A stretch of DNA of 64,000 nt, taken from assembly GCA_965198115.1 (NCBI GenBank), contig OZ240241.1, positions 160,001 through 224,000 of the forward strand. The letters run 5' to 3'. Source of the DNA: Candidatus Latescibacterota bacterium (GTDB lineage: Bacteria; Latescibacterota; UBA2968). The position numbers were made by a program, and so were the translations under genes. Below the pieces are notes generated by a model. The model saw only the letters and a program-made list of their open reading frames with translations. It ran no database searches and was not told the origin of the DNA. Positions 54,739 through 63,264 of the stretch are shown here, piece after piece (position 1 is the first letter of the stretch; each line of letters starts with the position of its first letter).

Positions 54739-56183
54739 GGAGCTCAGGTCAATAGGTGTGTAAAAGAAATCAGGCGGCCATCTTCCCGGCTTCGACCTGC
54801 GGTCCGGTTGAGTGTTTCTGATCGTAGACTTGTTGTAGCAAGTGTGGCGCGGTGAGTTTCCTGAATCGGCTCTCTGCGACCTTGAGCGTACGCCAGATGA
54901 GAGTCGTGGCGTTCCTGACTTTCTTGAATCGCCTGGCGGCGTTTGTGCGAAGCCGAACGGAAGCAAAGGGGCTCTCGACGACGTTCGTGGTTCTCAGGTG
55001 TTTCCAGTGTTCCTTCGGGAAGTCGTAGAACGTGACCATCCGATCCCAGTTTCTTTCGAGCGTCTCCACGGCGGCAGGGAACTGTGAGCGATACCGTGCG
55101 GCAAAGCGTTTCCGGAGCTTCTCGGCCTCCTTTTTCGTGCCGGCATAGGGGATCTGGACGAGCAGTGCGCGGGCTTCAGCCTGTGCACGCTTGGCGACCT
55201 TGTCGAGCACGTTGAGGATCTTGTGGTTCCAGCACCGTTGTTGCCGGCTCTCTGGCCAGACCTGATCAACGGCCGCCCAGATGCCCATATTCCCGTCCGC
55301 GGCGATCAGGACAGGATGTTCGAGCCCGCGATCCCGGAGATCCCGGAGCACCGTGAGCCAGGATTCTGTAGACTCTCGATAACCGGGTTCTATCGCCAGG
55401 ATCTCCTTGCTGCCGTCGCTCATCGCGCCGATCACGACCAGCAGACACGCCTTCTCGCGCTCGAGCCCGGCTTTGACGTAGATGCCATCAGCCCAGGCGT
55501 AGACCAGTTCGCGATTATCCAGACGCCTTTCTTTCCAGTCCTGGAAGTCGACCTCCCACTTCCCTCGAAGACGAGCGATCGAGGTCGGCGAAAGCGGCGC
55601 GCCATCACCGAGCAGCGCACGCAAAGACAACTCGAAGTCGCCCTGGGAGAGACCGTGGAGATAAAGGTCGGGAAGCAGATCTCCAATGGCCCTGGTTCTC
55701 CGGGCGAACAGGGGGAGGATGCGGCTTTCAAACCGCTCTTCCAGACCACGAACCCGGGGACGCCGGACCTTGATCGTTCCGCAGCTCGTCGAGAGACGCC
55801 GGGGCTTGCCGTAGCCGTTCCTGTAGCCCCTGGAGCTATCGACCTCGGCTCGGCGCTCATACCACGACCGGCCCAAGAACGCGGTCGCCTCCTCCTCCAG
55901 AATGGACTGGAACCGGCCCTGGATCTCTTCACGGATCCAATCGTCAACCGTCTCCCACGTCGGCATGGACTTCAATGGGGCTCTATGCGTATGTTCCTTC
56001 ACGGCGATCCTCCTTCCCAACCGGGCCTCTCACCCGGTTTTGTGTGAATCAACTATCTCACGGGACTCACCGCGCCACACTTGCTACAACAAGTCTACGA
56101 TCAGAAACACTCAACCGGACCGCAGGTCGAAACCGGGAAGATGGCCGCCTGATTTCTTTTACACACCTATTGACCTGAGCTCC
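54739..56183 (-). mobile_element. IS256-family element bounded by 119-bp inverted repeats
   Basis: 54739..54857 is the reverse complement of 56065..56183 with one mismatch; no target duplication. Confidence 0.88.
54770..56002 (-). CDS. IS256 (Mutator-type) transposase
   Basis: YRNGY, LYLHGLS, WADG, ADG, QRCWNH, LRTTNVVES; GTG start after AAGGAGG. Confidence 0.93.
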   Translation of the reverse strand: MKEHTHRAPLKSMPTWETVDDWIREEIQGRFQSILEEEATAFLGRSWYERRAEVDSSRGYRNGYGKPRRLSTSCGTIKVRRPRVRGLEERFESRILPLFARRTRAIGDLLPDLYLHGLSQGDFELSLRALLGDGAPLSPTSIARLRGKWEVDFQDWKERRLDNRELVYAWADGIYVKAGLEREKACLLVVIGAMSDGSKEILAIEPGYRESTESWLTVLRDLRDRGLEHPVLIAADGNMGIWAAVDQVWPESRQQRCWNHKILNVLDKVAKRAQAEARALLVQIPYAGTKKEAEKLRKRFAARYRSQFPAAVETLERNWDRMVTFYDFPKEHWKHLRTTNVVESPFASVRLRTNAARRFKKVRNATTLIWRTLKVAESRFRKLTAPHLLQQVYDQKHSTGPQVEAGKMAA

Positions 56184-59416: not shown

Positions 59417-59495
59417 ATGGACAAGGGATATGCCAACCCGCAGCTGCTCTGGTCCGCAGAGCAACTTAGCGATCGGCTGGGGGACGAGCATCTTA
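59417..59495 (+). pseudogene. Rhodanese/sulfurtransferase 5' fragment, interrupted by IS630
   Basis: GAGGA RBS; MDKGYANPQLLWSAEQLSDRLGDEHL joins in frame to RIVDAR after the IS. Confidence 0.88.
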
Positions 59496-60757
59496 GTGCA
59501 TGGGTTCATAAATATTATTACGTATGTTCTGAACATTATTTGTAGCTTATGTTCTCCTTCAAAAGGAGGAGAACAATGCCAAGACGTTCGCCTTATGTGG
59601 TGCTACTGTCTGAGAAGGAACGGGTCGACCTCGAGCGAATGGCTGGACAATATACGTTACCGTATTATCAAGTGATCCGATCGAAAATCGTGCTTCTCGC
59701 CGCCGAGGGATTATCCAACAAGATTATCGCCCAACGGTTGGATGTCCCGCGTCCGATCGTAAGCAAATGGCGTAAGCGCTTTTTCGAAGAGCGTCTTTCG
59801 GGACTCGAAGATAGATCTCGTCCCGGGCGCCCGCCCGGTTTTCCCCCCTCAGGTGGTCGTTCAGATCAAGGCGCTGGCGTGTGAACTACCGAGCGAGAGC
59901 GGGATACCGCTCTCGCGGTTCAGCTGTTCCGAGATTGCCGCCGAGGCAGTGCAAAGGGGCTTCGTTGCCAAGATCAGCGGCGCCACTGTCTGGCGCTGGT
60001 TGAACGAGGACGCGATTCGTCCTTGGTATCATCGTTCCTGGATTTTCCCACGGGACCCGGACTTCCAAACCAAAGCAGGTAGAGTCCTTGATCTGTATCA
60101 CCGCCAATGGCAAGGAAAGCCTTTAGGGCCGAGGGAATATGTACTTTCTGCCGACGAAAAGACCAGTATTCAAGCACGAGCTCGCAAGCACGTTACCCTA
60201 CCGCCAGCCTCGAACAGAGCGGCACGCGTTGAAACACGAATACGAGCGGAAAGGAGCCCTGGCCTATCTGGCTGCTCTCGACGTGCACAATGGTCGAATC
60301 TTCGGTCTCTGTGAGTCTTCTTCGGGTATCGAGCCCTTCAACCGGCTCCTGAGCCTGATCATGAGCCGGAAACCCTATTGCTCGGCAAAGAAAGTCTACC
60401 TCATCGTGGATAATGGCTCCTCGCACCGAGGGCAAACATGCATCGACCGTATCCAGGGGAAGTGGCCAAACATCCACCCCGTTCACCTTCCGATCCACGC
60501 AAGCTGGCTCAATCAGATCGAGATCTACTTCTCGATCCTCAAACGCAAGGCTCTGACACCTATCGAATTTGCATCGCTCGAAGAGCTTGAGGCAAGAATC
60601 CTCGGTTTTCAGGAACGCTACGGACGTATCGCCACACCCTTCAAATGGAAGTTCACACGAACAGATCTCGCGGAGATGATCGACAAACTCAGGTTCTACG
60701 ATACGCCCTTGGCAAAGTCTGCTTAGAATACGTCACCGTATTTGCGAACAGGAGTAC
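59496..60757 (+). mobile_element. IS630-family insertion sequence
   Basis: Imperfect IRs (A)GTGCATGGGTTCATAAATA / TATTTGCGAACAGGAGTAC(T); inserted at CTTAG with (T)TA duplicated. Confidence 0.9.
59576..60726 (+). pseudogene. IS630 transposase: HTH orfA plus DDE orfB, with an extra frameshift
   Basis: KWRKRF..RPGRP, likely programmed shift at TTTTCCCCC (~59840), SADEK, DNGSSH, SWLNQIE; extra A at about 60234 breaks VEHEYER. Confidence 0.88.
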
Positions 60758-61509
60758 TTAGGATCGTGGACGCGCGTCCGCTTCAGGATTATGTCGAGGG
60801 CCATATTCCCGGCGCGATCCACCTGGACGTCTATGGCATCAGCCTCAACGATACGTCGGACGAACCGTTCAACGCGTTCATGTGGATGTATGCCTATCTG
60901 TTTGGCAGCCGAGGGATCGGATCGGACCAGACGATCGTCTTTTATGGCCAGAATTCCGATATGCGGGCCGCTCGGGCGTTCTGGGTTTGCGAGTACCACG
61001 GGCACGGAGATGTGCACGTGCTCGATGGCGGCTATGGTGCGTGGATGGCCGATGGGTATGAAACGTCGACGGTGTGCGAGAACGCAGAGAGTACTGTGTT
61101 CGAAAGCCAGGCAGAACCAACCTGCGCGATCGGCTATCAGGAACTGTTGGACTCGCTGAGTCGTGACCACTTCGTTCCACTCGACACGAGAAGCGAAGGT
61201 GAATACACGGGGGAAACGGTTCGGGCGGCACGAGGTGGGGCGATTCCGGGTGCAGTGCACATCGAGTATGTGAACAATCTCGATGATAACGGTTTCTTCA
61301 AACCCGCGGACGAACTCCGGATGATGTATGAGCGTGCGGGTGTGATGCCGGAACAGACCGTCGCCTGCTACTGACAGGGCGGCTACCGCTCTTCCCACAG
61401 CTACCTGGCGTTGCGGCTGATCGGTTACGAGAAAGTTCGCAACTACATCGGCTCGTGGAAGGAGTGGGGGGATAGACTGGAGTTGCCAGTCGAGAAACCG
61501 AGAGGCTGA
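60758..61509 (+). pseudogene. Two-domain rhodanese (TST/MST) 3' part with in-frame TGA at the catalytic site (putative Sec)
   Basis: GHIPGA, LDGG, DTRS..EYTG, GAIPGA, VACY-TGA-QGGYRSS...[12 protein letters not shown]; frame stays open to TGA 61507-61509. Confidence 0.88.
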
Positions 61510-61736
61510 AGGCACCAAGAAAACATTCCACACGAAGGCGCGAAGAGATTGTGGGGGAGCAGTCTCTGACTGAACTTCTGTCGGTCGACGAAAGATCAGT
61601 CGGCGGTCGGCGGTGCGCTGTGGGCGGAAGAGACGGCTTCGCCCCTGTGAATTTTTGCCAATTGCGTGTCCAAAAGAGGAGTGGCAGGTCGTCTTAGTGT
61701 ACTGGCTGAGCATATCCGGATGAAGATGGGCTGACA

Positions 61737-62006
61737 ATGCCGACGGTTTCCTTTACCCAGAATATTCAGCGTCACATCGCCTGCCCGACGATGGAAGTTA
61801 GTGGATCGACGGTGGGGGAGGCCCTGTCAGCCGTTTTTGAGCAGATTCCGAAAGCGAAGGGGTACGTACTCGACGAGCGAAGCGCGGTACGTCGGCATAT
61901 GGTGATTTTTGTGGATGGGGAAGGCATTTCGGATCGAAACGGGTTGAGCGATCCGGTGCGGGCGGATTCGGAGATTTATGTGATGCAGGCTCTTTCTGGA
62001 GGTTGA
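61737..62006 (+). CDS. MoaD/ThiS family ubiquitin-like protein
   Basis: 89 aa; TVGEAL, IFVDGE, C-terminal ALSGG. Confidence 0.92.
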   Translation: MPTVSFTQNIQRHIACPTMEVSGSTVGEALSAVFEQIPKAKGYVLDERSAVRRHMVIFVDGEGISDRNGLSDPVRADSEIYVMQALSGG

Positions 62007-62008
62007 GT

Positions 62009-63124
62009 ATGAGTGATCGACTACTCGTGGGGACGCGTAAGGGTTTGTTTCAGATAAAGCGATCGAGTTCCGGTTCGTGGGAAATCGTTGACAGAGACTT
62101 CCTGGGCGACAACGTGAACATCGTCGCGGCTGATCCACGCGAGGGGCAGGTTTTCGCCAGTCTGGATCACGGGCATTTTGGAACGAAGCTGCATCGATCG
62201 AGGGACGATGGGAAGTCGTGGGAAGAGATTGAGGTTCCCGAGTATCCGGAGCAGCCTGATGGATGGGAAGAGATTCCGAATCCGTTCACGGGGAAAGTGG
62301 CGCCGTGGAGTCTCCATATGATTTGGTCCATCGTTCCGGGATTGTCGACCCAAGCGGGCCGTGTCTGGTGCAGGACGATTCCCGGGGGACTGTTTCAGAG
62401 CGATGACGCCGGGGACAGTTGGACGTTCGTGCGATCGCTTTGGGACCTCGATGAACGAAAGTCGTGGATGGGGGCGGGAACGGACTACGCTGGGATCCAT
62501 TCGATTCTGGTGGATCCGCGAGACGAGGATCACGTGACGGTGGGTGTCAGCGTCGGGGGAGTCTACGACAGCGCTGATGGCGGCGCGTCGTGGCGAGCCA
62601 GGTGCGACGGGATGAGGGCGGAGTACGTGCCGCCCGAACAATCGGAAAACCCAGAGGTCCAGGACCCCCATTACGTCGCCCAATGTCAGGACGATCCGGA
62701 TACACTTTGGGCGCAGCACCATAACGGGGTTTTCGTGACACAGAACGGGGGCGATCAATGGAGCGAGATCGAGAAAATCGATCCTTCAACTTTCGGCTTC
62801 GCGGTGGCAGTTCATCCACGGGACGGCAATACCGCGTGGCTCGTTCCGGGTGTGAAAGACGAACACCGAATTCCGGTCGATGGGAAGCTGGTGGTGACGC
62901 GCACACGAGATGGAGGGAAGACGTGGGAGAAGCTCTGGAAGGGGTTACCGCAGGAAGACGCCTACGACCTGGTGTTTCGGCACGCGCTCGACGTGGACGA
63001 ATCGGGCGATCGTGTTGCGTTCGGGTCGACGACGGGGAATCTATGGATTTCGGAAAACCAGGGAGATGACTGGTCTCAGGTCTCCGGGACGCTGCCGCCG
63101 GTCTATTGTGTACAATGGGGATGA
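62009..63124 (+). CDS. BNR/Asp-box beta-propeller (sialidase-like) protein
   Basis: LLVGTRKGLF; S.D.G.SW repeats; QDPH, QHHNG, STFGF; no signal peptide. Confidence 0.88.
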   Translation: MSDRLLVGTRKGLFQIKRSSSGSWEIVDRDFLGDNVNIVAADPREGQVFASLDHGHFGTKLHRSRDDGKSWEEIEVPEYPEQPDGWEEIPNPFTGKVAPWSLHMIWSIVPGLSTQAGRVWCRTIPGGLFQSDDAGDSWTFVRSLWDLDERKSWMGAGTDYAGIHSILVDPRDEDHVTVGVSVGGVYDSADGGASWRARCDGMRAEYVPPEQSENPEVQDPHYVAQCQDDPDTLWAQHHNGVFVTQNGGDQWSEIEKIDPSTFGFAVAVHPRDGNTAWLVPGVKDEHRIPVDGKLVVTRTRDGGKTWEKLWKGLPQEDAYDLVFRHALDVDESGDRVAFGSTTGNLWISENQGDDWSQVSGTLPPVYCVQWG

Positions 63125-63176: not shown

Positions 63177-63216
63177 CAAGACGCCAAGACACCAAGAAAG
63201 ACGATACAGATTCTTA

Positions 63217-63250
63217 GGGGTGCCTCGGTGAACCGGGGTGCCCCTTTGTT
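63217..63250 (+). terminator. Possible intrinsic terminator
   Basis: GGGGTGCCTCGG-TGAA-CCGGGGTGCCCC then TTTGTT. Confidence 0.5.
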
Positions 63251-63264
63251 CGTTGGAGACCTCG

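Follow-up and report, generated by a model that had tools for sequence, protein, structure and literature searches.

Genes at the locus

The 64,000-nucleotide stretch of a Candidatus Latescibacterota bacterium genome analyzed here (assembly GCA_965198115.1, contig OZ240241.1, positions 160,001 to 224,000; hereafter the window) contains, at window positions 59417 to 63124, genes that an initial annotation had joined into a selenium/sulfur relay: a selenocysteine (Sec) rhodanese, a small ubiquitin-like carrier with a Gly-Gly tail, and a propeller protein. The carrier and propeller genes were found to form a conserved pair, and what is new about this pair is its association with molybdoenzymes, which is strong in two phyla and absent in a third. 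The carrier gene (61737..62006, plus strand) encodes an 89-amino-acid beta-grasp protein similar to MoaD, CysO and SAMP1 that ends in ALSGG. Its Pfam ThiS match (PF02597, 25.5 bits) lies above the cut-off of 22.5, while its best NCBIfam match, the SAMP1 model (E 1.9e-10), lies below the cut-off. The propeller open reading frame (62009..63124, plus strand) begins 2 nt past the carrier stop codon and encodes a cytoplasmic seven-bladed Asp-box propeller of 371 amino acids from the family of Protein Data Bank (PDB) entry 3B7F, an assignment that draws on a structure model, a structural match and conservation. No signal peptide precedes strand 1, which starts at residue 4, and the motifs DPH (219-221) and QHHNG (236-240) are present as originally described, as are the SGG terminus of the carrier and the 227-bp gap (61510-61736) that separates the rhodanese end from the carrier start. 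A terminator-like hairpin of 13 pairs with a T-rich tail (63216..63255, plus strand), seen in a consensus scan only, closes the pair.

The rhodanese gene is not intact at this locus. An IS630-family insertion sequence (IS) has entered after codon 25, which leaves a 5' piece of a tandem-domain Sec-rhodanese gene (codons 1-25, 59417..59491, plus strand; the intact genes of relatives share the N-terminal motif MDKGY(A)NP) and a 3' piece of the UxxG sulfurtransferase type (60757..61509, plus strand; Pfam Rhodanese E 9e-34). The inserted segment (59492..60761, plus strand) consists of the element itself (59497-60756), with helix-turn-helix and DDE_3 matches and imperfect inverted ends, between CTTAG copies at 59492 and 60757; its transposase is spread over three overlapping frames. 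All three genes are co-oriented as initially reported, with the qualification that the rhodanese is present as two pieces and not as one reading frame. The 8.4-Mb genome contains 66 full-length copies of this element at 99% identity, a recent expansion with a target of the CTWAG type. Contigs from the probable source sample span both IS junctions by less than 31 letters, the bridging threshold, and list no empty-site joint; they were not counted. A Gfo/Idh/MocA oxidoreductase gene that extends to 57092 carries an IS256/Mutator transposase gene (54770-56020, minus strand) at its 5' end and seems to be start-less, which would make it a second IS-struck gene within 5 kb.

Removal of the IS630 element in silico restored a rhodanese frame of 276 codons with stops only at codons 231 (Sec) and 276. 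The in-frame TGA (61372-61374) stands at the catalytic codon in the context CY-U-QGG. The same codon is TGA in 29 of the 30 loci L042-L071, a set that includes the locus in the window, and TGC in the remaining one. Among the rhodanese matches of 54 relatives, 49 contain one in-frame TGA, located at the catalytic codon wherever this was checked, and a Cys codon (TGC) replaces it in two relatives (G032 and G058). The genome encodes tRNA-Sec, selA, selD and selB, the latter read from the frame beside selA. As judged from its conserved TGA, the rhodanese is a genuine selenoprotein gene in this lineage. The test for a selenocysteine insertion sequence gave no convincing element, with z values of 0.5 to -1.8 for single folds and a consensus hairpin directly after the UGA; this hairpin has a UAC loop, shows no notable two-sided changes and differs from the canonical G-loop model. 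The selD gene (genome positions 4008906-4009829) itself carries an in-frame TGA and likely encodes a Sec-containing SelD. A pyrrolysine reading of paralogous rhodaneses with TAG stops in relatives was dropped, as their active site is Cys (TGC). UxxG rhodaneses are already catalogued among the known selenoprotein families in a passage of PMC13188914. The gene shares PF00581, the UxxG motif and Cys homologues with these Sec rhodanese-related sulfurtransferases and differs in that the copy in the window is split by IS630.

The initial description of the locus as lacking an activating enzyme (E1) holds for the neighborhood; elsewhere, the genome encodes a MoeZ-type E1 with a rhodanese domain. This single ThiF-plus-rhodanese gene is distant from the locus. 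Genome-wide ThiF and ThiS searches, which did not screen each open reading frame of the window, gave no further match inside the window. Outside it, a JAB, CysO, MoaD-MoaE and four ThiS-family genes were found. Another MoaD-like gene, whose product ends in SGGR, directly follows a three-gene xanthine-oxidase-family operon (genome positions 1173486-1177402, minus strand).

Carrier and propeller as a conserved two-gene unit

The initial annotation had stated that pairs of MoaD-like and BNR genes recur in bacteria, and this was confirmed on a broad scale: carrier and propeller genes are adjacent in 171 of 194 loci, in either gene order. Among close genome loci, a set that leaves out four loci at 22-25% identity that represent other BNR proteins, the carrier lies directly upstream in 28 of 29, and in the one exception the contig ends within the locus. 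Of 568 metagenome loci the best 80 were considered; 74 of these have an upstream carrier, and the other six start less than 90 bp from a contig end. A diverse set of 85 loci was assembled from the phylum of the window (5), plasmid records (5), Bacteroidota (25), Pseudomonadota (20) and Chloroflexota (30 of 74 matches). Here, 69 loci have an adjacent carrier, upstream or downstream depending on the subfamily.

The Gly-Gly terminus of the carrier is well preserved. The motif QxLSGG is invariant across 28 aligned homologues, and carriers ending in GG account for 27 of 28 close genome loci, 70 of 74 metagenome loci and 65 of 69 diverse loci (with three short extensions and one carrier without GG making up the rest of the diverse set). 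In the three locus sets together, eight further carriers have two to four residues after GG and one has no GG. Listed with loci L265, L266 and L176 are a Nonomuraea carrier whose C-terminus has no Gly-Gly and two Chloroflexota genomes with tandem duplicate propellers, one of them lacking a nearby carrier. Natural fusions of carrier and propeller are common as well and were found through P0069; a longer-form search with the carrier alone gave one match. Among the 120 listed of 283 protein matches, 117 are full length, and 116 of these retain an internal GG, followed by a linker whose length varies from about 0 to 34 residues. Cleavage of MoaD-MoaE fusions by JAMM proteases is described in a passage of PMC8832034. 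An AlphaFold model of a natural fusion, based on a 120-row alignment, folded both domains (predicted template modelling score (pTM) 0.79) with low confidence for the Gly-Gly linker and is uninformative on docking, and a complex prediction of propeller and carrier that scored 0.00 was counted neither for nor against an interaction.

The propeller was modeled with high confidence (pLDDT, the predicted local distance difference test, 96; pTM 0.93) and superimposes on PDB 3B7F with a TM (template modelling) score of 0.87, a Z-score of 49.3 and a root-mean-square deviation of 1.8 over 350 residues (sequence E 5.9e-54). The 3B7F protein (Reut_B4987, YP_299179.1) belongs to the same family and shares the HS, DPH and Q-x-H motifs and Arg324, whereas overall identity is only 33% and the entry is a structural-genomics structure without a function; one passage of PMC2716378 gives its family as "Not known". 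Below 3B7F, a wide fold search returned many seven-bladed propellers at Z 22-27, including lactonases, selenium-binding protein, thiocyanate dehydrogenase and N2O reductase, none of which was conspicuous. Across the diverse set, His164, Ser181, His221, Gln236, His238 and Arg324 are invariant in all 85 loci and Lys11 is found in 84, while position 219 is Cys in 60 and Asp in 25. Only the Gln and the second His of QHHNG are kept family-wide. From this conservation, His164, His221 and His238 together with Asp/Cys219 are predicted to form a metal site, at which the basic residues Lys11 and Arg324 could hold a carboxylate or thiocarboxylate. One family member, P0056, is a 704-amino-acid fusion of a Ser/Thr kinase-like domain with the propeller.

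The retained Gly-Gly, the fusions and the invariant histidines fit the part of the initial proposal in which the propeller is the acceptor of a sulfur carrier; the supply of sulfur or selenium by the rhodanese was not supported, as detailed below. A function assigned to the pair was not found. The literature searched contained no study of it, although gene tables could still mention it, given that supplements and subscription journals lay outside the coverage. Term searches for "propeller" and "BNR" returned nothing in PMC1779556, PMC2948915 and bioRxiv 2020.01.30.927608. The propeller of P. aeruginosa is presumably PA1356, judging from gene order and locus number. A passage of PMC11538994, given without data, says that PA1356 promotes colonisation and biofilm. 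Two loci contain a gene for an AlkZ-like DNA glycosylase (L125:1938-3020, L173:206-1396), which in one of them separates carrier from propeller and in the other follows directly downstream.

Association with xanthine-oxidase-family molybdoenzymes

Propeller-positive and propeller-negative genomes were compared in three phyla, with PF02738 as the marker for the large subunit of xanthine-oxidase-family enzymes. All are incomplete metagenome-assembled genomes, and the phylum searches scored only the top 5-10 candidates per genome. For Bacteroidota, an even sample of 351 genomes contained 22 with the propeller, and 58 of the 329 negatives were compared, taken in consecutive runs of the list that passed over five of the smallest early genomes. 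PF02738 was detected in 20 of the 22 positives and in 19 of the 58 negatives, and MoaC in 22 of 22 and 30 of 58, respectively. The excess of PF02738 persisted when only the MoaC-positive negatives were considered (16/30). Pseudomonadota gave a similar picture: all 20 positives (of 301 genomes) contain both PF02738 and MoaC, while PF02738 occurs in 23 of the 60 negatives compared (of 281) and in 23 of the 49 that are MoaC-positive. In size-matched subsets the difference in PF02738 remained. The control family DUF6596 was found in 8/22 positive and 12/58 negative Bacteroidota genomes (p 0.16). The genome of the window holds four PF02738 genes.

Physical proximity was observed in Bacteroidota: in 7 of the 22 sampled genomes, no more than about 6 kb separates the propeller from xdhC, xdhAB, coxMSL, moa genes or moeZ, and in one more the distance to xdhC-moaA is about 11 kb. 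The neighbors comprise xdhC (G473, G289), xdhAB/xdhC (G463, G459), a moa cluster with xdhC and coxMSL (G345), moaC-moaE-moeB-moaD (G189) and moeZ (G343, in an operon with the pair); one of these cases is a propeller-carrier-moeZ operon (locus L254). In an annotated Chondrinema record the pair lies beside xdhC, moaE, sufU and a cysteine desulfurase. A quick tree places the molybdoenzyme-linked Bacteroidota cases in two deep branches of the propeller family; six belong to the Bacteroidota clade that is sister to the subfamily found in the window.

Several observations weigh against a general link with molybdoenzymes. In Chloroflexota, the first 40 full-length positives of 66 were compared with 40 negatives, and PF02738 was not enriched (35/40 vs 31/40, p 0.38); five propeller-positive Chloroflexota and 2 of the 22 Bacteroidota genomes have no PF02738 match. 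Related genomes are not independent, and the p values, which carry no phylogenetic correction, overstate the significance. Four of the xdhC-linked cases represent one clade, and physical clustering with molybdoenzyme genes is nearly absent outside Bacteroidota: phmmer searches of 119 loci besides that of the congener, covering the subfamily of the window outside Bacteroidota, found no recurrent gene for the molybdenum cofactor (Moco), E1, JAB or sulfur transfer near the pair, and Pfam scans of neighbors gave only one MoCF_biosynth gene and one molybdopterin oxidoreductase. A different context of YciI, VOC, SRPBCC and a DUF6596 sigma factor recurs in several phyla. Of the 85 propellers in the diverse set, 16 lack a carrier within 1.5 kb but still retain all conserved residues. 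Finally, many genomes with xanthine-oxidase-family molybdoenzymes do without the pair, so it can be at most accessory.

Possible functions of the pair

Taken together, the pair probably acts as a sulfur carrier with its acceptor, whether for molybdoenzymes or for another substrate. Our more specific proposal is tentative and stands at somewhat under an even chance: the pair would be a self-contained, conserved two-gene unit of sulfur carrier and metal-binding acceptor that serves xanthine-oxidase-family molybdoenzymes, with the split Sec-rhodanese upstream as a chance neighbor. The genome survey shows that carrier and propeller genes stay associated, as neighbors in either order or as a fusion, and that the Gly-Gly is retained. 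By analogy with MoaD and CysO chemistry, a MoeZ or MoeB encoded elsewhere would adenylate the tail and turn it into a thiocarboxylate; where the carrier is fused or bears a short extension, a JAMM protease would release the tail. The conserved residues suggest that the tail would then enter the Lys11/Arg324 site next to the putative metal center. The last and least certain step, suggested by genome context, would be sulfur transfer to Moco or to a molybdo-hydroxylase, as a supplement to XdhC and a cysteine desulfurase. Such a unit, patchy and stress-linked, would suit an accessory or repair function. It is doubtful, if conceivable, that the pair, as a ubiquitin-like carrier with a thiocarboxylate and a propeller metalloenzyme with a His triad, places or renews the terminal sulfido ligand of xanthine-oxidase-family enzymes in a stress-linked repair of desulfo forms. 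According to a 2026 review (PMC13653126), a bacterial repair route for desulfo enzymes has not been identified, and the terms MoaD, thiocarboxylate, rhodanese and propeller are absent from the main text of this review.

Among the closest known parallels is the MoaD-MoaE molybdopterin synthase, including the fused MoaD-MoaE (MoaX). Both systems place a Gly-Gly beta-grasp carrier beside or fused ahead of one partner, retain the Gly-Gly in fusions, rely on an E1 in trans and are linked to Moco genes. They differ in that the partner here is an Asp-box propeller instead of MoaE. A phmmer search of 120 loci gave no MoaE match near the propeller, and the genome has a separate moaD-moaE; because moaE is also present in this genome and in the Chondrinema and G189 clusters, the pair is no replacement for MoaE. 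CysO-CysM-Mec-MoeZ, ThiS-ThiG and CysO-BexX are further systems that combine a carrier with a dedicated acceptor enzyme. The pair resembles them in its proposed dedicated acceptor and, in a few members, in a short stretch that follows the Gly-Gly, and differs in having no pyridoxal phosphate-dependent or TIM-barrel partner; the genome has a separate cysO operon. With the XdhC and NifS4 route of Moco sulfuration in Rhodobacter capsulatus it has in common the recurrence near xdhC, xdhAB, coxMSL and MocA-like genes, whereas the known route uses a cysteine-desulfurase persulfide. To our knowledge, every known Gly-Gly carrier pathway is defined by its partner enzyme, and a propeller partner that probably bears a metal site would define a further one. 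The family has a crystal structure and no function was found for it, while thousands of its proteins carry a "sialidase" label; the molybdoenzyme link turns this orphan pair into a directly testable hypothesis.

The three genes do not form a three-part relay, and the transposon-split Sec-rhodanese is likely a chance local neighbor. Charging of the Gly-Gly by a rhodanese without E1, as initially envisaged, conflicts with the chemistry of MoeB and MoeZ, in which adenylation of the Gly-Gly precedes sulfur loading; rhodaneses are no substitute for this step, and the genome has the required enzyme elsewhere. In a set of 60 relatives, the rhodanese occurs in 54 and the propeller in 6. Five relatives have both: the genes adjoin each other in the congener G001, whereas G009, G051 and G056 have them unlinked and the 5-kb contig of G050 allows no decision. 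In the congener, strand and order are the same, the gap between rhodanese and pair is 88 bp, and the pair is frameshifted (possibly an assembly error); in G007, of a sister genus, a decayed, broken carrier remnant stands behind the rhodanese. In G002 and G010 the same amidase-DUF218-rhodanese block is continued by other genes, which suggests that the pair was inserted after it. A neighborhood survey for linked rhodanese, E1 or JAB genes had been suggested, and phmmer searches with the genome's own MoeZ, JAB, MoaE, CysM, IscS and rhodaneses over 120 propeller loci (851 kb) matched only the congener. The diverse set added a few cases, namely moeZ as above, an unrelated Cys-rhodanese in G652 that lies some 600 bp beyond the pair, and a lone propeller in G299 on which a cysO-moeZ-rhodanese operon converges. 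Linkage of rhodanese and pair exists beyond the window, in the congener and as the G007 remnant, as local synteny and not as a recurring operon. These cases speak for a relay in which the Sec-rhodanese would load sulfur or selenium onto the carrier on behalf of the propeller. This reading is already largely refuted by the distribution, and with the IS-split gene it is highly improbable.

A rather unlikely alternative, though the strongest of those weighed here, keeps carrier and acceptor and assigns them a small molecule or damaged metabolite as substrate, within a regulon for stress or detoxification; the need for MoeB/MoeZ and a versatile, aerobic lifestyle would then account for the co-occurrence with molybdoenzymes. 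The pair is flanked by YciI, VOC, SRPBCC, DUF1579, DoxX and a DUF6596-type sigma factor in Bacteroidota, Chloroflexota, Pseudomonadota and P. aeruginosa, MoaC in every Bacteroidota and Pseudomonadota positive fits the need for a Moco E1, and Chloroflexota show no molybdoenzyme signal. However, the PF02738 excess holds among MoaC-positive genomes (20/22 vs 16/30 and 20/20 vs 23/49), xdhC, mocA-like and xdhAB genes directly adjoin the pair in several arrangements, and DUF6596 does not predict the pair in Bacteroidota. It is improbable that the carrier is a protein tag in a SAMP- or Urm1-like conjugation, with the propeller as ligase, reader or metal-dependent de-conjugase. The sub-threshold SAMP1 match, the peptide-binding Asp-box propellers among the structural neighbors (sortilin, Ycf48 and DAIP) and the retention of the site in stand-alone propellers would agree with a tag, whereas the 120 loci revealed no E2, E3, JAB or proteasome/AAA gene nearby (JAB and E1 by phmmer, the others by Pfam scans of part of the neighbors), and a fixed 1:1 pair with head-to-tail fusion is closer to MoaD-MoaE than to tagging. 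Least credible is a sialidase or glycoside hydrolase next to an unrelated carrier gene, as suggested by the database names "exo-alpha-sialidase" and "glycosyl hydrolase" (the family comprises at least 7979 clusters at E 1e-20, with proteins labelled "sialidase") and by GH74 enzymes that come next in sequence and Foldseek searches. Sialidases of GH33 have a six-bladed fold, GH74 enzymes have tandem propellers, and both are usually exported; the protein in question is a single seven-bladed propeller without a signal peptide. Apart from Sortilin-Vps10, its Pfam BNR-type scores fall under the cut-off, and invariant His, Lys, Arg and Gln residues take the place of an acid pair, with position 219 mostly Cys. 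A glycosidase would also leave the pairing and the fusions unexplained.

Elsewhere in the genome, a dense one-strand array of 20 tRNA genes (positions 2870558-2872531) was seen apart from the normal set, and it looks like a mobile-element tRNA array.

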